A DNA stretch of 64,000 nucleotides, taken from Bacteroidota bacterium. GTDB taxonomy: Bacteria; Bacteroidota; Bacteroidia; Bacteroidales; FEN-979. The notes below the pieces were generated by a model that saw nothing but the letters and a program-made list of their open reading frames with translations, was not told the origin of the DNA and searched no databases. This document shows, one piece after another, positions 14,134 to 56,996 of the stretch. The translations under genes were made by a program, and so were the position numbers. The stretch spans positions 2,587 to 66,586 of the forward strand of contig JBAXRP010000001.1 in NCBI GenBank assembly GCA_037131145.1, in the 5' to 3' direction. Numbering within the stretch: the stretch's first letter is position 1; each line of letters begins with the position of its first letter.

Positions 14134-14149
14134 TGTTTCACGTGAAACA
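14134..14149. other. parS (ParB-binding centromere-like site), perfect palindrome TGTTTCACGTGAAACA
   Basis: 16/16 match to the tGTTNCACGTGAAACa consensus. It lies in the ybeY-mnmG intergenic gap. Confidence 0.8.
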
Positions 14150-14156
14150 ATAGATT

Positions 14157-16028
14157 TTGAAAAATAGTTACGATGTAATTGTTGTTGGCGCTGGTCATGC
14201 AGGTTGTGAAGCAGCTTCTGCTGCTGCAACACTAGGATCCAAAGTTTTGTTGATTACCATGAATATGATGAACATGGCACAAATGTCATGCAATCCTTCT
14301 ATTGGAGGAATTGCCAAAGGACAGATTGTTCGGGAAATTGACGCATTAGGAGGATTTACTGGAATTGTTACAGACAGAACCATGATTCAATTCCGAATGC
14401 TGAACAAATCAAAGGGTCCAGCGATGTGGAGTCCCCGCTCCCAAAATGATCGGATAAAATTTTCACAGGAATGGAGGCGAATTTTGGAAACAAACTCTAA
14501 TGTAGATTTCTGGCAGGATTTTGTTTTCGATCTAATTCTTAAAAATGGAAAAATTATTGGAGTTAAAACAGGAATGGGACTCAAATTTGAATCCCGGTCA
14601 GTTGTTTTAGCAAACGGAACGTTTCTTAATGGCATGATATACATTGGGGAAAAGAAGTTTTCAGGGGGTAGAATCGGCGAACGATCATCAATGAATCTTT
14701 CTGATAATATATTAAAATCAGGTTTTGTCTCAAACAGAATGAAAACCGGAACACCTGCTCGGGTGGATGGAAGATCCCTGGATTTCTCTAAAATGGAAGA
14801 ACAACCTGGAGATGAAAACCCTGGTAAGTTTTCCTTTTCTGAAACCCCTCCATTAAAAACTCAGCGAAGTTGTTTTCTTACTTATACAAATGAGGAAGTA
14901 CACGACATTTTAAGAACCGGATTTGATCGCTCCCCTATGTATTCAGGAAGAATTATTGGTCGAGGTCCGAGATATTGTCCTTCCATTGAAGACAAAATTG
15001 ATCGGTTTGCTTCCCGAAACAGGCATCAGTTATTTATTGAACCGGAAGGCTGGAATACCGTTGAATTCTATGTTAATGGATTTTCTTCCTCCTTGCCTGA
15101 AGATATACAGTTTAAAGCCCTAATGAAAGTTAAAGGATTTGAAAAAGCAAAGTTTTTCCGTCCTGGTTATGCAATAGAATACGATTATTTTCCACCAGAA
15201 CAGTTATATTCAAATTTAGAAACAAAAATAATTGAAAACCTTTTTTTTGCAGGCCAAATTAATGGAACAACTGGTTATGAGGAGGCTTCTGCGCAAGGTC
15301 TAATTGCTGGCATAAATGCTCATTTGAAGGTTAATAATCAAAAGCCATTAGTTCTTAAACGTTCTGAAGCATATATTGGTGTACTAATAGATGATCTAAT
15401 TACAAAAGGTACCGAAGAACCATACAGAATGTTCACCTCCAGAGCGGAATACAGATTACTTCTTAGACAAGATAATGCCGACCAACGTTTAACCGGTATT
15501 GCTCATGAACTTGGTCTTGTTTCACATGACCGACTCAGAGGTGTTTCTGAAAAATACGAAAAAGTAAATCATTTGACCAGATTTCTTAAAAACCAGACTC
15601 TTAAACCAGAGGATATTAATTCTATTCTTCTTGAAAACAATTCTGCTCCAACTACACAGAAACAAAAAGCTGCGAATTTTCTTCTCAGACCTCATGTTTT
15701 CCTAAATGATTTGATTTCAAAAATTGATATACTAAAATCATATTTAGAAGAGCACTGCCTGGATAATTTCGAGATTATCAACGAGGCAGAATTAGTAATA
15801 AAATACGAAAGTTATATCGAAAAAGAACAAATGCTTGCTGACAAAATGGCTAATCTTGAAAATCTTTTCATCCCAAATAATTTTAATTTCAATAAAATTA
15901 CCTCATTATCCATCGAAGCCAGAGAAAAACTTACAAAGATTAAACCTTCTTCAATAGGACAGGCAACAAGGATTAGCGGTGTATCTCCTGCTGATATTTC
16001 GGTGCTTATTGTCTTCCTTGGAAGATAA
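14157..16028 (+). CDS. mnmG: tRNA uridine 5-carboxymethylaminomethyl modification enzyme MnmG (GidA)
   Basis: 623 aa with a TTG start, the FAD motif YDVIVVGAGHAGCEAA, and a conserved GidA body and C-terminal helical domain. Confidence 0.93.
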   Translation: MKNSYDVIVVGAGHAGCEAASAAATLGSKVLLITMNMMNMAQMSCNPSIGGIAKGQIVREIDALGGFTGIVTDRTMIQFRMLNKSKGPAMWSPRSQNDRIKFSQEWRRILETNSNVDFWQDFVFDLILKNGKIIGVKTGMGLKFESRSVVLANGTFLNGMIYIGEKKFSGGRIGERSSMNLSDNILKSGFVSNRMKTGTPARVDGRSLDFSKMEEQPGDENPGKFSFSETPPLKTQRSCFLTYTNEEVHDILRTGFDRSPMYSGRIIGRGPRYCPSIEDKIDRFASRNRHQLFIEPEGWNTVEFYVNGFSSSLPEDIQFKALMKVKGFEKAKFFRPGYAIEYDYFPPEQLYSNLETKIIENLFFAGQINGTTGYEEASAQGLIAGINAHLKVNNQKPLVLKRSEAYIGVLIDDLITKGTEEPYRMFTSRAEYRLLLRQDNADQRLTGIAHELGLVSHDRLRGVSEKYEKVNHLTRFLKNQTLKPEDINSILLENNSAPTTQKQKAANFLLRPHVFLNDLISKIDILKSYLEEHCLDNFEIINEAELVIKYESYIEKEQMLADKMANLENLFIPNNFNFNKITSLSIEAREKLTKIKPSSIGQATRISGVSPADISVLIVFLGR

Positions 16029-16044
16029 TGTTCCACGTGAAACA
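16029..16044. other. parS site TGTTCCACGTGAAACA
   Basis: Identical to the canonical Bacillus-type parS 16-mer. It begins immediately after the mnmG stop codon. Confidence 0.8.
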
Positions 16045-30220: not shown

Positions 30221-30373
30221 TTTTTTACAGATTTTGTTAATAAATACGTTTGAATTGCAGCAGACAACTTGTGCAAAAAGTTTCCGCGACAAAAGTATCT
30301 AAGAAAACAAGAGCCCCTCGTATGGTATTGGTGAGATTTGTTAATATAATAACTGACATTTCTCAACAGCCTG

Positions 30374-30400: not shown

Positions 30401-31096
30401 TCAGCCAGTTTCGCTGATCTGACGAAGTTGTTTTACATTAAGGATTTCCATTTTATTTCCTGCAACAGTTAATATACCCTCCTCCTTAAATTCTTTTAAA
30501 ATTCTTATGGCGCTTTCCTTTGACATGCCCGAAAGATCGGCCAGATCCTGCCGCGAAATGCTTAGTTCAAAAGGATTCTTGCAATAGATTTTTTCGGAAA
30601 GGTAAAAAATGACGTCGGCAATCCTACCGGGCATTTGCTTTTGAGTCAGACTAACGATTTGTTCAAAGTTAAAGATGGATTGCAGAGATACTCGTTTTAA
30701 AAAATCCTCGGCAAAATCGGGGTTTTCACGAATCAGTTTTTTAAAAACGGATGCATCAACAAGGCAGGCGGTACAGTCTTCAACGGCTGATGCTGAATAA
30801 TAGTGACGATTATCAACGTATATACCAGGTCCGAAGATGTAATCCACAGGTTTTACAAGCGCCAGAATAAGATTCTTGCCATAGCCCTCAATATAGATCT
30901 TTGCCAATCCGGATGTTATACAAACAAAGTATGGCGAAGGAGTGCCTTGTTTGAAAATGATTTCTCCACCTTTATAATCAACCTGAAATCGGCTGTTGTT
31001 GATCAGATCAAGCTCCGTCGAACCTAAATTTTTAAAAATCTGAGTTTTGCAGTTGCAATCATTACAATTGGATGCCTGATGATTTTTATTGATCAT
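30401..31096 (-). CDS. Crp/Fnr-family transcriptional regulator with an N-terminal Cys cluster
   Basis: cNMP-binding-like beta-roll followed by a C-terminal HTH (RQDLADLSGMSKESAIRILKEF). I chose the start at ATG 31096 (MINKNHQASNCNDCNC), because the 23 extra residues of the track ORF are implausibly hydrophobic. Confidence 0.85.
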   Translation of the reverse strand: MINKNHQASNCNDCNCKTQIFKNLGSTELDLINNSRFQVDYKGGEIIFKQGTPSPYFVCITSGLAKIYIEGYGKNLILALVKPVDYIFGPGIYVDNRHYYSASAVEDCTACLVDASVFKKLIRENPDFAEDFLKRVSLQSIFNFEQIVSLTQKQMPGRIADVIFYLSEKIYCKNPFELSISRQDLADLSGMSKESAIRILKEFKEEGILTVAGNKMEILNVKQLRQISETG

Positions 31097-31192
31097 TATA
31101 CTGCCTCTTAGACTTTGCTTTTTAGTATCGGACAAAATTAGTAATAAAATGATAAAAAGCAACAATTTTACTATTTTTCATCAACTAAGAGG

Positions 31193-31290: not shown

Positions 31291-32280
31291 TCACATAAGT
31301 TCAGCATTTTCGAGATATTCGGCGATTTGAACAGCATTGGTGGCGGCGCCTTTGCGAAGGTTATCAGCAACGATAAATAAATTGAGGGAGGCAGGTTGGG
31401 ATTCATCCCGTCGGATACGACCGACAAAAACCGCATCCGACCCTTTTGCAATCAGAGGCATCGGATATATATTCTTTGCCGGATCATCCTGAATAACTAT
31501 TCCGGGAGTTCCTGATAATATCGCTTTTATATCAGGTAATGTGAAATCATGTTCAAATTCAACGTTTACCGCTTCTGAATGTCCGCCCAATACAGGAACC
31601 CTCACAATAGTTGAGGTGATCCTGATGGAATAATCGTTCAGAATTTTATGTGTTTCATTTCGAAGTTTCATCTCTTCCGTGGTATATCCGTTTTCGAGAA
31701 AATCGCCGCCATGAGGAAACAGGTTCAGGTCTATCTGGTGTGGATATGCCATCGCCCCTGAAACGCCATTGCGTTCATTTTCTAATTGTCGCACCGCTTT
31801 TGCTCCAGTTCCCGTTACCGATTGATAAGTAGAAACCACGATTCTTCTGATGCGGTATTTTTCATGCAGCGGCGCGAGCGCCATAACCAATTGAATTGTA
31901 GAACAGTTTGGATTAGCTATTATTTTATGCGCGCTAGTAAGGATTGAAGCGTTGATTTCAGGAACAATCAGCGGAACATCCGGATCCATACGCCATGCCG
32001 AAGAGTTATCAATTACCGTACATCCAGCCGATGCATATCGTTTAGCCCATTCCTTCGAAACTGTGGCGCCGGCAGAAAAGATGGCTAAATCCGGGTTATG
32101 CGTAATCGCAACAGTATTTGATTGAACAACGTGGGTTTGATTATTGAATATAACCGATGATCCTTCCGATTTTGCGGAAGCAACAGGAATCAACAAATCC
32201 GGGTGGAATTTGCGCTCTTCCAGAACCTTCAGTATTTCTCTGCCTACCAGTCCGGTAGCGCCTACAATTGCCAGTTTCAT
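31291..32280 (-). CDS. asd: aspartate-semialdehyde dehydrogenase
   Basis: 329 aa with the N-terminal Rossmann motif MKLAIVGATGLVG, the active-site region NPNCST, and an Asd-typical length. Confidence 0.92.
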   Translation of the reverse strand: MKLAIVGATGLVGREILKVLEERKFHPDLLIPVASAKSEGSSVIFNNQTHVVQSNTVAITHNPDLAIFSAGATVSKEWAKRYASAGCTVIDNSSAWRMDPDVPLIVPEINASILTSAHKIIANPNCSTIQLVMALAPLHEKYRIRRIVVSTYQSVTGTGAKAVRQLENERNGVSGAMAYPHQIDLNLFPHGGDFLENGYTTEEMKLRNETHKILNDYSIRITSTIVRVPVLGGHSEAVNVEFEHDFTLPDIKAILSGTPGIVIQDDPAKNIYPMPLIAKGSDAVFVGRIRRDESQPASLNLFIVADNLRKGAATNAVQIAEYLENAELM

Positions 32281-32396
32281 GCGGGGTCGAGTTTTGGCAA
32301 AGATACTGAAATGGCGAAATGACGAAATGGTAAAAAAAGTTATTAACAGTGGTTTTACTTTTGGGGTTTTTGGGGATTAAACAGAAAAATGAAATC

Positions 32397-34985
32397 ATGA
32401 AAAAAATATTTTTCTTTCTTTGCCTTGCTCCTATGATGGGGCTGGGGCAGGTTATTGATAATTTTTCGGATGGAAATTTTTCGGTCAATCCCGCGTGGAC
32501 AGGCGATACGGCGCAATTTGAGGTTAGTTTGGGCAATCAACTCCAGTTGCAATCATCCGGCGCCGACACTTCCGTTCTTCTTACTCCCAACAGTAGAACG
32601 CTAAATACCGAATGGAGTTTCTGGATGAAATTATCTTTCAATACCTCAGCAAATAATCACGCAAGGATTTATTTACTGTCCGATTCGGCAAATCTGAAAT
32701 GCGCCAACGCTATCTTTTTGCAGGTTGGAGGCTCCGATGATTCCATCGCGATAATTAAGCAGAATGGCATTGAGCTAACATCATTATACAGATTCAAATC
32801 ATATAAAACCGATAATTCTACAAATATCATGCGGTTCAGAATAATCAGAGACGACCGGGGCGACTGGGAAACAAATATTGATACAACCGGTGGTTTCAAT
32901 TATATTCCTGATGGCGGTTTTTCGGAAAATTCATTGTTTCAATCCAGATGGTTTGGAGTTTACTGCCGTTATACATCAAGCAATGCTACAAAATTATGGT
33001 TTGATGATTTCTATGTAGGAGCGATCATACATGATACTACTCCGCCACAAGTAATCTCACAGGAAATTATCTCTGAAAATATAATCAAAATTGCAATGTC
33101 GGAACCCATTCAGAAGCAGGAGGCGGAAAACCCCGAAAACTTCAGGCTTTTTTCAGGTGGTTATCCCGATTCGGCAAAACTGGAAGTAAACGATCCAACA
33201 GTTATTATTCTTAGTTTTCCCGGAATATTCCCCGAAGGTGTGATTGATACATTATCCGTTCATGGCATAAGCGACCTCAACGGAAACATAATTCTGGATA
33301 CCCTGGTTCCGGTTTTTTATTACAAGCCAAAGGCTTTTGACATTGTAATCGTCGAAATTCTTGCCGACCCTGAGCCGCCGGTTGAACTGCCTGTTGCAGA
33401 ATTTGTAGAATTATACAACCGCACCGTTTATCCGCTGAATCTGAAAGATTGGACATTTCAGTATGGAAGCTATTCAAAAATATTCCCAGATGTGACGATA
33501 CCTCCAAAAAACTATTTGATTATATCTAAAGATTCGGTTTTCCTCCATTTTGGTTTATGCACAACATTGTTCACGTCATCAAGTTCATTGTCAAATGAAG
33601 GTACAACATTGGCGCTAATGGATCAGAAAAAGCATGTAATTCATTCAGTTTCATATAGCCCTGAATGGTTTGGCGGTTCCTTCAAAGGGGATGGAGGATG
33701 GTCGCTCGAAATGTCCGACCCTGAAAATCCTTGCGGTTGTATGGAAAACTGGTGCGCCTCCACCGATTATTCCGGAGGAACTCCAGGAAGAATAAATTCG
33801 AATTTCAGGTCAAATCCAGATATTACCAAACCTCTCATTTCAAGGGCTTTTATCGCCGATTCATCTACGCTGAAAGTGAGTTTTTCGGAAGCCATGGATA
33901 GCCTTACTTTGCTTTCGCGTGAGAAATGGATTGTAAACCCTGAAGAGTTGGGACATCCCGAAAGTGTGGAACCTGAAGCGCCAAGGTTTGACGCGGTAAA
34001 ATTGCATTTTAACAATCCGTTTTCGAGAGGCGTTTTATATAATTTGGCAATCGCCGGCAAAATGAAAGATTGTGTCGGAAACCAGATTGATTCATCGCGG
34101 AATGTGCGGTTTGCAATTCCCGATTCCGTAGCGCTTCACGATATTGTAATCAATGAGTTTTTACCTGATCCCGCCACCGGCGGATCGAGATTTGCGGAAC
34201 TTTATAACCGTTCGGAAAAGATACTTGATCTGCAATCATTGGTCATCGCGGTTAGCGACAGCGCAAGCCTTCAGTCTGATGCAGAACCATTGACTGATAA
34301 TGGCTATTTGTTGTTTCCTGGCGATTATGTGGCGTTTACTTCCATTCCTGCTGATATTATTTCACGCTACCGACCACAGTTTCCAGAAGCGATTATGGGG
34401 ATGGAAAAATTCCCAACTTTGGGAAATGATTCGGGAACCGTTATCATTGCGCGAAAGGACAACTTTACCATTATTGACCGGGTTCGGTATGACGCAGCCA
34501 TGCATTATCCGATATTGGCGACAACCGAAGGCGTTTCACTTGAACGGGCAAGCCCTGAGTTACCATCCGACGACAGGAACAATTGGCATTCGGCGGCAGA
34601 AACCGTAGGATTTGCGACGCCGGGATACCTAAATTCGCACCGGCTTGATTCGCCAAACGATGGGTTGGATATATCGGTAACGCCGGAAGTTTTTTCACCG
34701 GATAACGACGGGTTTGACGATCTGCTGAATATCGCAATTCGTGAACCAAATCCTGGATTTTCAGTTAATATTTACATTTACGATTCGCATGGAAGAGCGA
34801 TAAAACAGTTGGCAAACCAGGTTTATGCAGGCAACGAGGGGGTTTTCTGCTGGGATGGAATGACTGGCGCAAACAGAAAAGCCGGAATCGGCATATATGT
34901 TTTGCTGATCGAATTAACAAGGCAGGATGGAACTGTAAAAAAAGTGAAGAAAACCACGGTACTTGGAGGAAAGTTATCACAATAA
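32397..34985 (+). CDS. secreted protein with two lamin-tail (LTD) domains and a gliding/T9SS-type C-terminal domain
   Basis: Start chosen at ATG 32397 (MKKIFFFLCLAPMMGLGQ, a signal peptide). LTD signatures IVIVEILADPEP..EFVELYNRT and IVINEFLPDPA..FAELYNRS. The C-terminus reads FSPDNDGFDD...GIYVLLIEL. Confidence 0.75.
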   Translation: MKKIFFFLCLAPMMGLGQVIDNFSDGNFSVNPAWTGDTAQFEVSLGNQLQLQSSGADTSVLLTPNSRTLNTEWSFWMKLSFNTSANNHARIYLLSDSANLKCANAIFLQVGGSDDSIAIIKQNGIELTSLYRFKSYKTDNSTNIMRFRIIRDDRGDWETNIDTTGGFNYIPDGGFSENSLFQSRWFGVYCRYTSSNATKLWFDDFYVGAIIHDTTPPQVISQEIISENIIKIAMSEPIQKQEAENPENFRLFSGGYPDSAKLEVNDPTVIILSFPGIFPEGVIDTLSVHGISDLNGNIILDTLVPVFYYKPKAFDIVIVEILADPEPPVELPVAEFVELYNRTVYPLNLKDWTFQYGSYSKIFPDVTIPPKNYLIISKDSVFLHFGLCTTLFTSSSSLSNEGTTLALMDQKKHVIHSVSYSPEWFGGSFKGDGGWSLEMSDPENPCGCMENWCASTDYSGGTPGRINSNFRSNPDITKPLISRAFIADSSTLKVSFSEAMDSLTLLSREKWIVNPEELGHPESVEPEAPRFDAVKLHFNNPFSRGVLYNLAIAGKMKDCVGNQIDSSRNVRFAIPDSVALHDIVINEFLPDPATGGSRFAELYNRSEKILDLQSLVIAVSDSASLQSDAEPLTDNGYLLFPGDYVAFTSIPADIISRYRPQFPEAIMGMEKFPTLGNDSGTVIIARKDNFTIIDRVRYDAAMHYPILATTEGVSLERASPELPSDDRNNWHSAAETVGFATPGYLNSHRLDSPNDGLDISVTPEVFSPDNDGFDDLLNIAIREPNPGFSVNIYIYDSHGRAIKQLANQVYAGNEGVFCWDGMTGANRKAGIGIYVLLIELTRQDGTVKKVKKTTVLGGKLSQ

Positions 34986-45768: not shown

Positions 45769-46206
45769 TTATAATATATTTGAAATTTTTTCAACTCGAT
45801 TTTGATGCCTGCCACCCTCAAAATTTGTATCAAGGAAGATCAATGAAAATTTTACCGCCTCATCAAGGCTTATGAATCGGGCAGGTAATGCAATGATATT
45901 GGCGTTATTGTGCTTTCTCGCCAAACTGGTTATTTCATCATTCCAGCATAAGGCAGCTCTAATTCCTTTATATTTGTTGGCAGTTATGGCTACACCGTTG
46001 CCACTGCCACAAATCAGTATTCCAAACTTATAAATTCCTGATTGAACATCATTTGCCAGTGGATGAGCGGTATCGGGGTAATCCATTGATATTTCAGAAT
46101 ATGTTCCATAATCCTGAAAAACATAACCCTGAGCGCTCAGATTGCTTATTATATACTCTTTCATGGTAAAACCCGCATGATCACTTCCGATAGCAATTTT
46201 CATCAC
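45769..46206 (-). CDS. rpiB: ribose-5-phosphate isomerase B
   Basis: 145 aa with MKIAIGSDHAGF, ILICGSGNG and ARKHNNANI motifs. Confidence 0.9.
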   Translation of the reverse strand: MMKIAIGSDHAGFTMKEYIISNLSAQGYVFQDYGTYSEISMDYPDTAHPLANDVQSGIYKFGILICGSGNGVAITANKYKGIRAALCWNDEITSLARKHNNANIIALPARFISLDEAVKFSLIFLDTNFEGGRHQNRVEKISNIL

Positions 46207-46682
46207 AAAACCAACCGTTGTTAATTAATTTTTTTACAAATGTACGCTAAACCCATCATTATGAATTAAAAAGAAATCTGCCTGTTTTATAGCATACTCA
46301 AAATCAAAATTTTATTTTTTTAACAGGCAATTGTTAACAACTCATTACTTTTGTGATTAAATGTTAATAAAAAATGAAAAATGTTAATAACTAATGCTGC
46401 CTGAAAATGTTTTTAGAAATTAGCAATATTTTATCAATAGTTTTCAACACAATCTTACCTGGCTGCAAAGCTGAGGTTATTAACAAGCCATCTTATTAAC
46501 AATTGTTAATACCAAATATAATTATTTATTATACAATAATTTAAAAAATATAACCTGTTAATAAAATGTTCATCAATTCATAAAATTTTAAAATCAAAGG
46601 TTTTTATTGAAAATTAATTAACAATATTAACAGCTATTAATATAAATACATATAAATATATTCTTTTTATTATTAAAAAAAA
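46207..46682. other. AT-rich divergent intergenic region with an array of TGTTAATAA / TTATTAACA 9-mers (candidate oriC or operator array)
   Basis: Exact 9-mers: forward at 46362, 46382 and 46556; reverse at 46477 and 46493. One-mismatch copies at 46219, 46504, 46615 and 46624. Palindromes TTGTTAACAA (46331-46340) and TTAACAATTGTTAA (46497-46510). An almost pure A/T tract runs 46641-46682. Confidence 0.5.
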
Positions 46683-47621
46683 ATGACTGAAAAAACAACC
46701 GCTAACCTGATTGAACGTATTCAACGCCTGAAAATGGAAAAAAATGCTGTAATATTAGCACATTATTATCAGGTTTCTGAAATACAAGATGTTGCAGATT
46801 TTGTTGGCGATAGTCTCGGCTTATCTCAGAATGCTTTAAATACAAATGCTTCAATTATCGTTTTTGCCGGAGTTCATTTTATGGCTGAGACTGCAAAAAT
46901 TCTAAACCCAAACAAAAAGGTTCTGATTCCAGATCTGATGGCAGGTTGTTCACTGGCTGATTCATGTCCTGCCGACAAATTTGCCAGCTTTAAGAAGATG
47001 AACCCGAATAACCTTGTAATATCTTACATCAATTGTTCTGCTGTGGTTAAAACCATGTCGGATGTGATTTGTACTTCAAGTAACGCAATAAAAATCGTTG
47101 AATCTTTTCCAAAAGAGCAAAAACTGATCTTTGCGCCTGATAAAAACCTTGGTGGATATATAAATGCAAAAACCGGAAGGAATATGCTACTTTGGGATGG
47201 TAGTTGCGAAGTGCATGACATGATCAAGGTTGAAGCGGTTATTAAAATGAAGGCAGATAACCCGGATGCATTGTTAATAGCTCATCCCGAATGCAAGGCA
47301 ATTATTCTTGAACTTGCCGATTATATTGGTTCCACAACCGGATTGCTTAATTTTACCGAAAAAAACAGCGCGACGAAATTCATTGTCGCAACGGAAACAG
47401 GTATTCTTCATCAGATGAAAAAAGCGTCGCCCGATAAAGAATTTTTAATTGTTCCTTCCGATTCTACCTGCTCATGCAACGATTGTCCTTATATGAAAAT
47501 GAATACACTTGAAAAACTTTACAACTGTCTGAAAACAGAAATACCAGAAATAACATTGCCGGAAGACGTTATTGAAAAGGCAAAAAAACCGATTTTGCGA
47601 ATGTTGGAATTATCTGTTTAA
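46683..47621 (+). CDS. nadA: quinolinate synthase
   Basis: 312 aa with ILAHYYQ, VHFMAETAKIL, INCSA and CPYMK motifs typical of NadA. Confidence 0.92.
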   Translation: MTEKTTANLIERIQRLKMEKNAVILAHYYQVSEIQDVADFVGDSLGLSQNALNTNASIIVFAGVHFMAETAKILNPNKKVLIPDLMAGCSLADSCPADKFASFKKMNPNNLVISYINCSAVVKTMSDVICTSSNAIKIVESFPKEQKLIFAPDKNLGGYINAKTGRNMLLWDGSCEVHDMIKVEAVIKMKADNPDALLIAHPECKAIILELADYIGSTTGLLNFTEKNSATKFIVATETGILHQMKKASPDKEFLIVPSDSTCSCNDCPYMKMNTLEKLYNCLKTEIPEITLPEDVIEKAKKPILRMLELSV

Positions 47622-53221: not shown

Positions 53222-55063
53222 ATGATAAATTATAACCCTGTTTGTTTTTTCATTGGGATGGTATTCATTATCTCCGGCTCCATTTCCGCTCAGAATGAAA
53301 AGTACGATGCAGTTTACGATAAACTGATCAAAGAATATACCCTGAATACCGACGGAAGCATGGACTACCGTTATATCAAACAATTGAAACTACAGTCTTA
53401 TCGAGCATTCCATAACCTTTACGGGGAAACTTTCATTGTTTATGACACCGTTAATCAGAAACTGAAAATCAATGAGGTCTTTACCGTCATGGCAGATGGC
53501 AAAAAAGTTATAACGCCTAAAAATGCCTTTAATGAAGTTCTTCCGGGTTTTGCCTCCAATGCGCCGGCTTACAATTTTCTGCGCGAGATGGTCATTACCC
53601 ACACTGGTCTGGAACGGAATGCAACTATCAATCTCGATTATCAGGTTCACAGCAAAAAAGGTTCTTTTCCTTTCCTGATGGGAAATGAGGTTCTCGCGGA
53701 AACGGAGCCGGTTAAATACCTTGAAGTCAGAGTTCGGATACCTGTCGGGTCTGAATTTTATTACAAGATATTCAACAGTAATGAAAAACCGGTAGAAACC
53801 CAGGAAGGCAATTTTCGGATATTTACCTGGAAACGCTCGGATGTTCCCGCCATTTCGGCTGATGAGGGACAACCTGTCGGACTTTCATCTTACCCTCGAT
53901 TGATTTTCAGCGTCTCTGATAAACCCGAAGAGGCTTACGCGTTTTTACTTAGTCAGCCTGCTTTTAGTTTCACCCTGAATGAAGAGATGAAAAACGAAAT
54001 TTCCAAACTCAGGAATAAATACATTGACAAATTTGAACTTGCTTTGAATATCCAGGAAATGATAGTGGACGATATACGGTTATATCCAATTCCATTCCGC
54101 GCGGCAATGTTTAAATGCCGCACCGCTGAGGAATCCTGGAACAGCTCTGGCGCCACAACGGTCGAAAAAGCCGTTTTGCTCGCCGCTATGCTTAAATCTG
54201 CCGGCTTTGACGCACAGGTAGCCGCCGTTGTAAGAACTGCTTTTTCCGACGATAAAATAGCCACTCTGAACGATATTGAGGATTTTACAGTCAGGGTTGA
54301 TTTCAAAGAGGAGGGAGCCTGGTATTTTTCGGTGACAGGTTTGAATTCCGTCAATCTGAAATACACGCTTCCTGGACGTTCATTTATCATCTTCGGCGCC
54401 GACGGAAAGATTACAAAGGAAAAGTCGGAGATACCCCGCTACATCATCAAGGTAATCGGAAATTTTATTGTTTCCTCCGACCCCAAACTGACCGGAGAAG
54501 TTTCGCTTTATTTCGGGGGAAGCGTATATCCGCAGGCAGGTTTATCGAGGGATAAGAAAAAAATGAGAAACGCGCTTACCGGTAATCTGATCAAAAACGA
54601 TAGCGCTAATTTGAAAAAGAACATCCTGAACAATGAAAACGGTTTTCAGACCTACATAGTTCAAAGCGACAAACCATTTAAAAAAGATTCCGATTTCTAT
54701 TTTTTCCAGTTACCGGTTGTGAATACGGGGATTGAAGGCTGGTACATCCGGACATTGTCGGAAAAACGTGAAACAGCTTATGAAATTCCGGCGTTGGCTG
54801 ATGAATCCTATTCCTATACCTTCATTATTCCCGCCACAATGACGTTGTTTACTCCGGTGAAGAAGCAAGCCATCAGCAACAAAGCCGGAACTTATTCCTG
54901 GGAAGTAACGAATGAAAAGGGTAAGGTTACCGTTAAGCGAAGCCTGAAATTCAATGATCTTGTGATTCCGGTTTCGATTTATCCCGAATTCAAAATCCTA
55001 ATGGATTACTGGAACAATCCCTGGTACAAGGAGCTTGTTTTTAAACAACTTACCGTTGAATAA
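53222..55063 (+). CDS. paralogous DUF3857/DUF3858-like protein with a degenerate transglutaminase-like core
   Basis: 613 aa with the same overall layout as its neighbour. The segment equivalent to the catalytic Cys reads SGATTVEKAVLLAAMLKSAGF, with no Cys. Confidence 0.65.
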   Translation: MINYNPVCFFIGMVFIISGSISAQNEKYDAVYDKLIKEYTLNTDGSMDYRYIKQLKLQSYRAFHNLYGETFIVYDTVNQKLKINEVFTVMADGKKVITPKNAFNEVLPGFASNAPAYNFLREMVITHTGLERNATINLDYQVHSKKGSFPFLMGNEVLAETEPVKYLEVRVRIPVGSEFYYKIFNSNEKPVETQEGNFRIFTWKRSDVPAISADEGQPVGLSSYPRLIFSVSDKPEEAYAFLLSQPAFSFTLNEEMKNEISKLRNKYIDKFELALNIQEMIVDDIRLYPIPFRAAMFKCRTAEESWNSSGATTVEKAVLLAAMLKSAGFDAQVAAVVRTAFSDDKIATLNDIEDFTVRVDFKEEGAWYFSVTGLNSVNLKYTLPGRSFIIFGADGKITKEKSEIPRYIIKVIGNFIVSSDPKLTGEVSLYFGGSVYPQAGLSRDKKKMRNALTGNLIKNDSANLKKNILNNENGFQTYIVQSDKPFKKDSDFYFFQLPVVNTGIEGWYIRTLSEKRETAYEIPALADESYSYTFIIPATMTLFTPVKKQAISNKAGTYSWEVTNEKGKVTVKRSLKFNDLVIPVSIYPEFKILMDYWNNPWYKELVFKQLTVE

Positions 55064-56996
55064 TCCTGCCGAGGCCATCGCGGTTGATATGTACGCTCTG
55101 GTTTTTCAATTTCACATAAGATTGCTGTAAGGCAAACTGCTCCTCTGAGGTTGTTGCGGTTTCAAGTTTTTTTCGGATTTCGGTCATCATTTTATCAAGT
55201 TTCCTTGCTTTGAAGGCATGTAGCGACAGGGTTACATGCATCAGCAGCCGCGTTTCCTCGGTAGTGATCATGATGTTGTTTTTAAGCCAGTTCGGGCTAA
55301 GTTCATAAGGAGTAAACACCAGGTTTATAGCTACGCCGGAAATCCCCGGATCGCTATTGGAAAGAAAGAAATCGCGGTCGGGCATTTCATCATTTTCAGC
55401 GCCTTTTACATATTCCCCGAAAATGGTTTTGTAAACCTCATTTTCAAAATCCATTTTATCGTTTATCAGGTCGTTAACCACATAATCGGCTACCTGAACC
55501 GGCGTTTCTTCATCTTCGGTTTTGGTGAGCTTCAGGTTAATGATCTCTTTACCGTAAAGAAGCAGTAGCCGGATGATCTCTTTTTCCTGATATTCGGGCG
55601 AATCGGGGTCAATCTCAAGCTGGGGTTCGGCGGGAATCAGTTCCGGCGGAATCTCCTCCATCGCTTTATCCGGTTCCGGCGAGCTTTTACGGAGTTTATT
55701 CCGCAGGATTTTGTTCAGTTCATTCTGAAGAACCTGTTCGGAAATGGTCATGATCGCCGAACACTCCCGCACATACAACGACCGTGAAATCGGATCCGGG
55801 ATAAGACCGATAGTATTCACAATCTCCTTAATCAGCGCTGCCTTTTTGATTGGATCGCCTTGTGTTTCACCGAGCAGCAGGCGGGTTTTGAACAGGATAA
55901 AATTGACGGCGTTATCTGAAATGAAGGAGGTAACTTCCGTTGGATGATGTTTCCGGGCGAATGAATCGGGATCCTCCCCGTCGGGAAACAGCACGATCTT
56001 CACATTCATGCCGTGTTCCACAATCATATCAATTCCTCTGAAGGAAGCCTTGATTCCGGCAGGATCGCCGTCGTACAGAATTGAAATATTCGGGGTAAAA
56101 CGCTGGATCATACGAATCTGATCCTGCGTGAGAGAGGTTCCCGACGACGCCACTACATTTTCGATTCCCGCCTGGTGCATTGAGATTACATCGGTGTAAC
56201 CTTCAACCAACAGACAATTATCCTTTGAAATGATAGCATTTTTGGCAAAATAGATTCCGTAGAGGGTTTTGCTTTTGCTATAAATCTCCGATTCAGGCGA
56301 GTTGACATATTTAGCAAATGATTTATCGTTTCCGAGAATTCGTCCGCCGAAGCCGATTACCCTGCCAGACGCGGTGTGAATCGGAAACATTACTCTGCCA
56401 TGAAACCGGTCGTACAGGCGGTTTTCTTTTTCGATGGAAAGCCCGGTTTTGAGAAGGTATTCCTTTTTATAGCCATGTTGGGTGGCATGGTCGGAAAAGG
56501 CGTCCCATTTACCTGGGCTGAAACCGAGTTGAAATTTTTTTACGAGGTCGTCGCGCATGCCGCGTTCCCGGAAGTAGGAGAGACCTATTGATTTTCCTTC
56601 CGAGGTTTCATTCAGGATTGTGGTAAAGTACTGGCGGGCAAAATCGGAAAGATTATAGAGGCTCTCTTTTTCATTGAGTTCCTGAATCTGCTCCGGGGTT
56701 TGTTCTTTTTCCTCAATTTCGATGTTGTATTTCCGGGCGAGGTATTTGAGCGCTTCGGGATAGGAGAAATGCTCATGCTCCATGATGAAATTCACCGAAT
56801 TTCCGGCTTTGCCGCAGCCGAAACATTTGTAAATCCCTTTGGCGGGCGAAACAGTAAAGGAGGGCGTTTTTTCGTTATGAAAAGGACACAATCCCAGAAG
56901 GTTAACACCGCGCCGGCGTAGGTTCACGAAATCGCCGATCACCTCCTCCACGCGGGCGGTCTGGATGATAGTGTCAATAGTGTCGCGGCTAATCAT
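55050..56996 (-). CDS. dnaG: DNA primase
   Basis: 648 aa with the zinc ribbon CPFHNEKTPSFTVSPAKGIYKCFGCG, a Toprim domain (LVEGYTDV, DGDPAG) and a C-terminal helicase-interaction region. Confidence 0.93.
   Translation of the reverse strand: MISRDTIDTIIQTARVEEVIGDFVNLRRRGVNLLGLCPFHNEKTPSFTVSPAKGIYKCFGCGKAGNSVNFIMEHEHFSYPEALKYLARKYNIEIEEKEQTPEQIQELNEKESLYNLSDFARQYFTTILNETSEGKSIGLSYFRERGMRDDLVKKFQLGFSPGKWDAFSDHATQHGYKKEYLLKTGLSIEKENRLYDRFHGRVMFPIHTASGRVIGFGGRILGNDKSFAKYVNSPESEIYSKSKTLYGIYFAKNAIISKDNCLLVEGYTDVISMHQAGIENVVASSGTSLTQDQIRMIQRFTPNISILYDGDPAGIKASFRGIDMIVEHGMNVKIVLFPDGEDPDSFARKHHPTEVTSFISDNAVNFILFKTRLLLGETQGDPIKKAALIKEIVNTIGLIPDPISRSLYVRECSAIMTISEQVLQNELNKILRNKLRKSSPEPDKAMEEIPPELIPAEPQLEIDPDSPEYQEKEIIRLLLLYGKEIINLKLTKTEDEETPVQVADYVVNDLINDKMDFENEVYKTIFGEYVKGAENDEMPDRDFFLSNSDPGISGVAINLVFTPYELSPNWLKNNIMITTEETRLLMHVTLSLHAFKARKLDKMMTEIRKKLETATTSEEQFALQQSYVKLKNQSVHINRDGLGRIIQR

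Follow-up and report, generated by a model that had tools for sequence, protein, structure and literature searches.

A candidate chromosomal replication origin with variant DnaA boxes between rpiB and nadA in an uncultured Bacteroidota lineage

The rpiB–nadA spacer

The spacer between the divergently transcribed genes rpiB and nadA (positions 46207-46682) of a Bacteroidota genome is 476 bp long, with a G+C content of 20.4% (GC 0.204). It was analysed within a 64-kb window, by which we mean the whole 64,000-nucleotide stretch of DNA at hand. As stated in a first-pass annotation of this DNA, the spacer is the longest non-coding stretch of the window; the next-longest uncovered stretch, i.e., an internal interval with neither an open reading frame (ORF) of at least 60 amino acids nor a tRNA, measures 274 bp. 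We propose that the spacer is, most probably, the DnaA-dependent chromosomal origin of replication (oriC) of this genome, and that it uses a variant DnaA 9-mer. The proposal draws on observations of motif enrichment, of architecture, of conservation on the nadA side, of identity with a DoriC entry in Chitinophaga pinensis, of a switch in skew at the site and of a neighbourhood with parS and mnmG. The features of the spacer and its flanks are given below; for boxes, plus means that TTATTAACA reads along the plus strand.

45769-46206, minus strand: rpiB (Pfam LacAB_rpiB, 1.5e-54), transcribed leftward, away from the spacer
46207-46682: whole rpiB–nadA intergenic region, candidate oriC with box cluster and unwinding module, from motif enrichment and as the densest cluster in 64 kb
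46219-46227, minus strand: box TAATTAACA, one mismatch to TTATTAACA, beside the rpiB promoter
46237-46244, minus strand: likely −7 element of the rpiB promoter, TACATTTG, from a pattern scan; promoter role putative
46317-46325, plus strand: box TTTTTAACA, one mismatch
46331-46340, both strands: palindrome TTGTTAACAA, made of two oppositely oriented one-mismatch boxes that overlap
46362-46370, minus strand: exact box, first copy of a direct repeat spaced by 20 bp
46382-46390, minus strand: exact box, second copy of the direct repeat
46441-46449, plus strand: box TTTTCAACA, fitting TT[AT]TN[AC]ACA
46477-46485, plus strand: exact box TTATTAACA
46493-46501, plus strand: exact box TTATTAACA, 16 bp past the preceding box; left arm of an 18-bp palindrome
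46504-46512, minus strand: box GTATTAACA, one mismatch, convergent with box 46493-46501 over a 2-bp gap
46514-46553: one of the two least stable 40-mers of the window (nearest-neighbour ΔG −34.5 kcal/mol)
46556-46564, minus strand: exact box
46615-46623, plus strand: box TAATTAACA, upstream box of the unwinding module, pointing to nadA
46624-46632, plus strand: box ATATTAACA, abutting the upstream box and adjoining the trios
46634-46642, minus strand: three DnaA-trios, top CTA TTA ATA, bottom 3'-GAT AAT TAT-5', from sequence and a regular-expression match
46636-46675: the other least stable 40-mer (ΔG −34.5 kcal/mol), candidate DNA unwinding element, extending to the nadA start codon
46683-47621, plus strand: nadA, quinolinate synthase (Pfam NadA, 3.3e-121), transcribed rightward, away from the spacer

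An array of variant 9-mers

Five exact copies of the 9-mer TTATTAACA (TGTTAATAA on the other strand) are present in the spacer, in both orientations, as had been noted: TGTTAATAA reads along the plus strand at 46362, 46382 and 46556, and along the minus strand at 46477 and 46493. Those at 46362 and 46382 form the 20-bp direct repeat. The 64 kb hold 10 exact copies, against 1.58 expected, and 5/10 are inside the spacer. With up to one mismatch to TTATTAACA, the spacer contains 13 boxes, again in both orientations; eight have one mismatch, which bears out the earlier count of at least four. The core hexamer TGTTAA occurs 12 times. When the spacer itself was shuffled 5000 times with its dinucleotides preserved, the count averaged 1.45 and never exceeded 7. 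Since 0/5000 shuffles reach 12, the AT-richness of the spacer is not the cause of the enrichment. The cluster is the densest, and the only one of its kind, across the 64 kb.

The 9-mer TTATTAACA matches the Escherichia coli DnaA box TTATCCACA at 7 of 9 positions and departs from the relaxed consensus TTWTNCACA at one, just as the first reading had it. We suggest that DnaA would bind TTATTAACA. In the sister species L005, whose spacer is about 90% identical to that of the window, the block around box 46441-46449 is fully conserved save for box position 5. Six substitutions separate the boxes of the window from those of L005; they affect box positions 1, 4 and 5 and leave positions 6-9 unchanged.

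Two perfect palindromes built from the boxes, also reported before, were found again, TTGTTAACAA at 46331-46340 and TTAACAATTGTTAA at 46496-46509; the second extends to a perfect 18-bp palindrome at 46494-46511. A reading of the array as operators for a transcription factor of nadA and/or rpiB-lutB, e.g., a NAD-responsive repressor, with no role in replication, was considered. The spacer is a divergent promoter region, its half-site is similar to that of the enterobacterial NadR operator, TGTTTA-N6-TAAACA (PMC2330246), which has the same target, nadA, and a TTAACA-N6-TGTTAA dyad is present at 46320-46337. However, this dyad is the single case of TGTTAA-N6-TTAACA or its inverse, and no recurrent dyad with fixed spacing was found among the sites of the spacer. 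The boxes are asymmetric, non-palindromic 9-mers in both orientations, with irregular spacings of 9, 11, 16, 20 and more bp. Whereas the NadR operator is a single 18-bp palindrome for a dimeric enterobacterial repressor, the 13 sites here spread over 415 bp and are far above the number in known NAD operators. Moreover, NadR proteins bearing a helix-turn-helix are limited to enterobacteria, and the NrtR regulons of Bacteroidetes consist of pentose genes, with prs-nadV and nadE in Cytophaga (PMC2330246). No regulator of the NadR, NrtR or NiaR type was found among the scanned neighbours of the site, the scan having covered part of the window's ORFs; a gene of the Crp/Fnr family lies 15 kb away.

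Regulation at the RNA level was considered as well. A riboswitch (the NAD+ nadA motif RNA) or a leader RNA in the spacer was rejected, as an Rfam covariance search of 46100-46800 on both strands gave no match at E ≤ 1. At the gathering threshold, Rfam finds only three tRNAs over the window, none of them in the spacer. The lack of a riboswitch or other Rfam family in the spacer likewise tells against an operator region for nadA.

A candidate unwinding module

At the nadA edge of the cluster, the tandem boxes 46615-46632 point at the three trios (46634-46642) and then at a very unstable 40-mer. A single nucleotide, G46633, separates the last box (46632) from the trios. The 40-mer in question (46636-46675) places an AT-rich candidate unwinding element at the border of the boxes, and it ties with 46514-46553 as the least stable of the 64 kb. 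The terminal tract at 46641-46682 is indeed, as first described, nearly pure A/T, with only two C up to the end of the spacer.

In the survey of origin unwinding modules by Pelliciari et al. (2021; PMC8287927), the first box lies 0-16 bp from the trios and may depart from the standard motif at up to 2 positions, and an optional second box at up to 4. Its trios follow the pattern (.A.){3,}; their central A is on the strand that shows the box as 3'-AATAGGTGT-5'. Exactly three consecutive trios with central A occur at 46634-46642. Counted against the E. coli motif, both boxes have 3 mismatches and fall outside the limit for a first box; counted against TTATTAACA, if it is accepted as the lineage motif, each has 1.

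This arrangement resembles that of Bacillus subtilis oriC (DnaA-box 6/7 and trios), in which tandem boxes, a short spacer, 3'-NAT-5' triplets and an AT-rich tract follow one another in the same orientation; in both, the strand bearing the central A of the trios is the one on which the box is written 3'-AATAGGTGT-5'. Unlike the B. subtilis origin, the window module, predicted from its sequence, has a box that differs at positions 5 and 6, has fewer trios and does not lie between dnaA and dnaN. Like the E. coli oriC (gidA-mioC), the spacer has a cluster of 9-mer boxes in either orientation and a candidate AT-rich unwinding region along one edge; its flanking genes are divergently transcribed, and mnmG/gidA is in the neighbourhood. 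In contrast to E. coli, the window spacer has no 13-mer repeats, mnmG is 30 kb off, and GATC sites are absent from the spacer (235 in the window), so Dam/SeqA-type control is not indicated.

If the spacer is an origin, initiation might proceed as follows. DnaA would bind the 13 to 16 lineage-variant TTATTAACA boxes across 46219-46632. The abutting boxes 46615-46632, which point rightward, would then nucleate an ATP-DnaA filament onto the trios 46634-46642. The filament would melt the tract of about 95% A+T up to the nadA start codon, with unwinding expected at 46634-46682. Finally, helicase would be loaded, and the forks would depart co-directionally with rpiB (leftward) and nadA (rightward). 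We further presume that this spacer is the only origin of the replicon.

Box clusters at other nadA loci

For comparison, 80 nadA loci were fetched from species-representative genomes, mostly of Bacteroidota, and the window's own locus is counted where stated. A cluster was located by the 500-bp interval richest in the relaxed box TT[AT]TN[AC]ACA. In 44/79 other loci, and in the window, the end of this interval falls no farther than 400 bp before the nadA start and no deeper than about 25 bp into the gene; by our own estimate, a cluster abutting nadA in this way is expected by chance at about 2% per locus. In pooled loci, the 500 bp before nadA are enriched 11.4-fold in TTATNNACA over the remaining sequence, and scrambled control patterns reach 0.7- to 5.8-fold in the same test. 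Broken down by the pair of bases at the variable box positions, the fold enrichment is 44 for TA, 21 for AC, 17 for GC, 13 for CA and GA, and 11 for CC. Position 6 is A or C in 129/137 boxes upstream of nadA. Where the AT-rich spacer upstream of nadA is missing, in Prolixibacteraceae, Saprospiraceae/Lewinellaceae, Rhodothermales and cyanobacteria, there is no box cluster.

The composition of the clusters varies. Those of Niastella, Sphingobacterium and Chitinophaga are filled with canonical TTATCCACA/TGTGGATAA boxes. Counts of canonical versus TA-type boxes run from mainly canonical (Niastella, 3 vs 0; Sphingobacterium, 5 vs 1) through mixed (L048, 6 vs 5; L052, 4 vs 4; L066, 3 vs 7) to mainly TA (L005, 1 vs 12; the window, 0 vs 13). 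The presence of canonical boxes and trios in orthologous spacers is hard to accommodate with an array of operators for a nadA or rpiB-lutB regulator and, together with the irregular, non-palindromic sites and the want of a nearby NAD regulator gene, leaves that alternative unsupported; we regard it as highly improbable.

In many loci the order upstream of nadA is the same: two tandem boxes directed toward nadA, the upstream one nearer to consensus, then a short G/C spacer, then triplets such as CTA ATA GTA ATA, and then an AT stretch, with some 35-45 bp of A+T between triplets and start codon. A strict form of this pattern (the 3' end of a box followed, after no more than 4 nt, by three or more NTA triplets, all within 200 bp of nadA) is found in 32/80 loci, the window included, versus 1.7 expected from shuffles. 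A hairpin in the Chitinophagaceae sequence CCCTAATAGTAATAGGG was entertained and rejected, as the stem varies across loci whereas the triplet register is kept.

Among close Chitinophagaceae, the hexamer of the box next to the trios is TTAACA, TTCACA, TGCACA, TCCACA or TACACA. Since these hexamers alternate, A and C interchange at box position 6 of one orthologous site. We take this interchange as the strongest evidence for reading TTATTAACA as a DnaA box, and the orthologous replacement by canonical boxes would extend the equation to the boxes of the spacer at large.

A different possibility is that the spacer is a true origin whose TGTTAATAA sites are bound by a second, Bacteroidota-specific origin or nucleoid protein, with DnaA on a few degenerate sites. 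In Chitinophagaceae, TGTTAAT and TGTGGAT hold distinct conserved places (TGTTAAT-N4-TGTGGAT), so that two readers are possible, and every reference consensus motif given in the literature examined has C at position 6. Nevertheless, TTAACA and T[TGC]CACA swap at the trio-adjacent box among close relatives, and the boxes grade continuously through CC, TC, GC, CA, GA and TA at the variable positions. In addition, a weaker and a stronger site in tandem are typical of DnaA arrays. A dedicated second protein on the TGTTAATAA sites thus seems quite unlikely, and we retain DnaA as the probable reader.

The composite TGTTAAT-N4-TGTGGAT, a TA-type and a canonical box in tandem at 11 bp centre to centre, lies at 899,615-899,636 in L085, with orthologous sites in L038, L044, L060, L061, L067, L068 and L079; it recalls paired weak and strong DnaA sites. 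The same-orientation pair of TGTTAATAA sites 20 bp apart (46362-46390 in the window) is also present in the distant Ferruginibacter locus L044, about 406 and 386 bp before nadA. This suggests that the 20-bp spacing is, like the sequence, conserved in the distal part of the putative origin. Also in Chitinophagaceae, the A+T segment from the trios to nadA, approximately TATATAAATAATAAGTATTAATACATATT and about 45 bp before the ATG, is almost invariant across genera (L038, L044, L052, L055, L061, L066, L067 and L082). Such a segment appears over-conserved for an unwinding element and may also serve as the nadA promoter or as a helicase-loading signal.

The gene order rpiB, spacer of 430-560 bp, nadA and MORN gene is kept in 17-20 related loci, and the RpiB proteins of loci sharing this order are only 50-61% identical to that of the window. 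Two loci titled Chlorobiota bacterium, L012 and L013, have the rpiB-spacer-nadA-MORN order together with TA-type boxes, as in the Bacteroidales-like loci; either the arrangement reaches beyond Bacteroidota or these bins are misclassified.

Agreement with curated origin predictions

The table of Pelliciari et al. (PMC8287927), in which modules are written 3' to 5', lists for the DoriC origin ORI93020100 of C. pinensis DSM 2588 the module 5'-GTTTTCACA TATTCACA GCC CTAATAGTAGTG-3' at 899685-899717. This exact string begins at 899,685 on CP001699.1. Since nadA of this strain lies at 899,755-900,762, the module starts 70 bp and ends 38 bp before the nadA start codon. For Niastella koreensis GR20-10 (ORI95030423) the same table gives 5'-TTATCCACT AATTCACA GCC GTAATAGTAATA-3', and 30/32 bases of this module match the sequence upstream of nadA in N. 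populi. Therefore, an independent method, Z-curve plus DnaA boxes, placed oriC in the spacer before nadA, in C. pinensis by coordinates and in Niastella by sequence match. The candidate origin of the window is in this sense positionally orthologous to the predicted origins of two cultured relatives. The suggestion of oriC in the first-pass annotation gains independent support here and from the box cluster and trio module found upstream of nadA across related loci.

The likeness extends beyond position directly upstream of nadA, as in C. pinensis. The modules of C. pinensis and N. koreensis also consist of tandem boxes toward nadA, a short G/C spacer, trios whose top strand begins 5'-CTA or 5'-GTA, and an AT tract up to the start codon, with further boxes in both orientations over 400 to 700 bp. 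Unlike the window, they contain canonical TTATCCACA-type boxes, and their 3 to 4 trios follow a 3-nt GCC/CCC spacer; in the window, canonical boxes are lacking and exactly 3 trios follow a 1-nt spacer. The left neighbour also differs, being a SurA-like gene in C. pinensis and rpiB in the window.

In supplementary file 3 of the same survey (PMC8287927), the 'species-specific DnaA box' of Flavobacterium johnsoniae, Tannerella forsythia and Flavobacteriaceae bacterium 3519-10 is given as 3'-ACAAGGTGC-5', that is, 5'-TGTTCCACG-3'. As TGTTCCACG precedes ACCTTGT, the site reads TGTTCCACGTGGAACA and looks more like a parS palindrome than like a DnaA box. It may be that some of the Bacteroidetes origins in the catalogue are actually parS sites.

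Skew, parS and the wider neighbourhood

The cumulative GC skew of the window has its minimum at 46-48 kb. The minus strand carries most genes at 21-46 kb, and the plus strand those at 46.7-55 kb, in line with the first-pass description. Raw left/right GC skew around nadA, computed for 51 loci, is confounded by gene orientation and was dropped. Because raw skew follows gene orientation, the per-gene GC skew at third codon positions (GC3 skew) was regressed on strand and side instead. The strand-adjusted side coefficient is +0.042 in the window, with a switch of sign at the site. In the 28 cluster-positive loci it is +0.039 (bootstrap 95% confidence interval 0.018-0.061) and is positive in 22/28; in the 10 cluster-negative loci it is +0.016 and not significant.

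Two parS sites and mnmG/gidA (14157-16028) lie some 30 kb from the spacer, with mnmG bracketed by the sites. The distance had been correctly stated before.

14134-14149: perfect parS TGTTTCACGTGAAACA, 32 kb from the site, in the 46-bp gap before mnmG
16029-16044: parS TGTTCCACGTGAAACA with one mismatch, just past mnmG, at the junction with a downstream methyltransferase gene

In 33 loci, mnmG is less than 10 kb from nadA.

The first-pass annotation had proposed locating dnaA. This was done by tblastn with E. coli DnaA domain IV as query, which matched nothing in the window and nothing within 10 kb of nadA in 88 loci. The adjacency of dnaA/dnaN, common but not universal for oriC, is accordingly not seen in the window. 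In this phylum, oriC commonly lies far from dnaA (PMC4755523), so the outcome of that check is uninformative.

DnaA-box clusters outside oriC are known from model bacteria, and it could be argued that the array is such a secondary cluster, e.g., for titration or reactivation of DnaA as at datA/DARS, or a DnaA-controlled promoter of nadA and/or rpiB, with the true oriC elsewhere. The nadA promoter must overlap the cluster, since the cluster abuts the nadA start codon, and the skew effect at the 20-kb scale is modest. On the other hand, the succession of tandem boxes, spacer, trios and AT tract is that of the published origin unwinding system (PMC8287927) and recurs in the 32/80 loci described above. 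A secondary cluster would leave this conserved module unexplained, and likewise the agreement with DoriC, i.e., the choice of the same spacer in C. pinensis by the Z-curve and DnaA-box method and the match of the N. koreensis module in N. populi. The proximity of parS and mnmG also speaks for a chromosomal origin. We therefore consider a secondary cluster unlikely.

Two side observations concern this neighbourhood. A DnaG primase gene (55050-56996, minus strand) is found 8 kb rightward of the candidate origin, at the same distance as in L005 and L014. Between 10000 and 15000 the DNA is compositionally unlike the rest of the window, with a GC of 0.31-0.34, an A-over-T skew of up to +0.29 and positive GC skew; the interval spans a gene for a 1118-amino-acid DUF4175 protein and small downstream ORFs.

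Weighing the proposal

Several observations count against the rpiB–nadA spacer being oriC with TTATTAACA as its DnaA box. The canonical box TTATCCACA is absent from 46183-46682 even with one mismatch allowed, and the exact TTATCCACA is absent from the whole 64-kb window. Both boxes of the module are 3 mismatches away from the E. coli motif, though each is one mismatch from TTATTAACA. The trios number only three in the window, and the closest relative, L005, has two consecutive trios because of a T-to-C change at window position 46635, and so fails the regular expression. Between the window and L005, 5.5% of box positions are substituted versus 10.9% in the rest of the spacer (Fisher p = 0.10), which makes the boxes weakly more conserved. 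With respect to skew, 7/10 cluster-negative loci also have a slightly positive side coefficient. Raw GC skew is positive at 1-15 kb and the genes at 1-21 kb are on the plus strand, which is the wrong direction for a site located 25-45 kb farther right. With a metagenome-assembled genome as the source, the cumulative skew covers the 64-kb window alone. Lastly, the DoriC origins used as anchors are predictions rather than experimentally mapped origins.

Every bacterium has an origin, so the value of the finding would lie in placing oriC in an uncultured Bacteroidota lineage in which adjacency to dnaA gives no guidance and a search with the E. coli DnaA box finds nothing. The element is most likely of an ordinary kind, and what sets it apart is the use of variant DnaA boxes throughout and a linkage to nadA common to many of the Bacteroidota fetched. 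A simple rule is suggested for a large part of the phylum, namely, to search the sequence before nadA for tandem boxes with CTA/ATA/GTA triplets next to them on the nadA side. Such a rule could help both the annotation of origins and growth-rate estimates from metagenomic coverage. The A/C interchange at position 6 of an orthologous site would, in turn, be a natural experiment on DnaA-DNA recognition.

It is tempting to go further and to suppose that oriC is physically anchored to nadA in much of Bacteroidota, that the box code is relaxed to TTATN[A/C]ACA, and that some lineages, that of the window among them, replaced every canonical box by TTATTAACA. We offer this broader view tentatively and with more doubt than conviction. 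If it were true, either the specificity of DnaA domain IV would have shifted at box position 6 or an origin could be made wholly of 'low-affinity' sites, and default origin finders, which search for the E. coli box with at most one mismatch, would overlook such origins. No description of a linkage of oriC to nadA or quinolinate synthase was found in the open-access text searched, which speaks only weakly for novelty. Full-text matches to the 9-mer TTATTAACA/TGTTAATAA were all unrelated, the Ori-Finder 2022 supplements have no match to Bacteroidetes, nadA or quinolinate, and PMC13643167 has no mention of Bacteroidetes.

Source organism, flanking genes and isolated boxes

Four other metagenome assemblies of the same organism carry a base-for-base identical spacer, and the NadA protein of the window is also present on contigs of the metagenome-assembled genome GCA_964412745.1. 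By NadA, the closest other genome is a lake metagenome-assembled genome (95% identity), and the next relatives are Bacteroidales and Lentimicrobiaceae (about 70-73%). Type IX secretion sorting domains were found among the window proteins. The neighbours of the site are rpiB, a lutB-like gene, and genes for an extracytoplasmic function (ECF) sigma factor, a MORN protein, a pseudouridine synthase and a response regulator with a PAS domain. The gene 3' of nadA, given as nadB in the surrounding annotation, proved to encode the MORN-repeat protein.

The octamer TACATTTG at 46237-46244 fits TAnnTTTG, which we take to be the Bacteroidetes −7 consensus, and is plausibly the −7 box of rpiB. If it is used as such, transcription signals would have no obvious place in the remaining 400 bp or so of the spacer. 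On the nadA strand, the sole −7 element of this type in the spacer is TACTTTTG (46346-46353, plus strand), 330 bp before the nadA ATG; were it used, the nadA transcript would cross most of the box cluster and the unwinding element.

Outside the spacer, an isolated exact 9-mer occurs at 30235-30243, upstream of a multihaem cytochrome gene and near the gene for a Crp/Fnr-family regulator (30401-31165). Another, at 32340-32348, lies between asd (31291-32280, minus strand) and the gene for a secreted LTD/CHU_C protein (32349-34985, plus strand). These two copies could be single DnaA boxes affecting transcription, or they could be due to chance.

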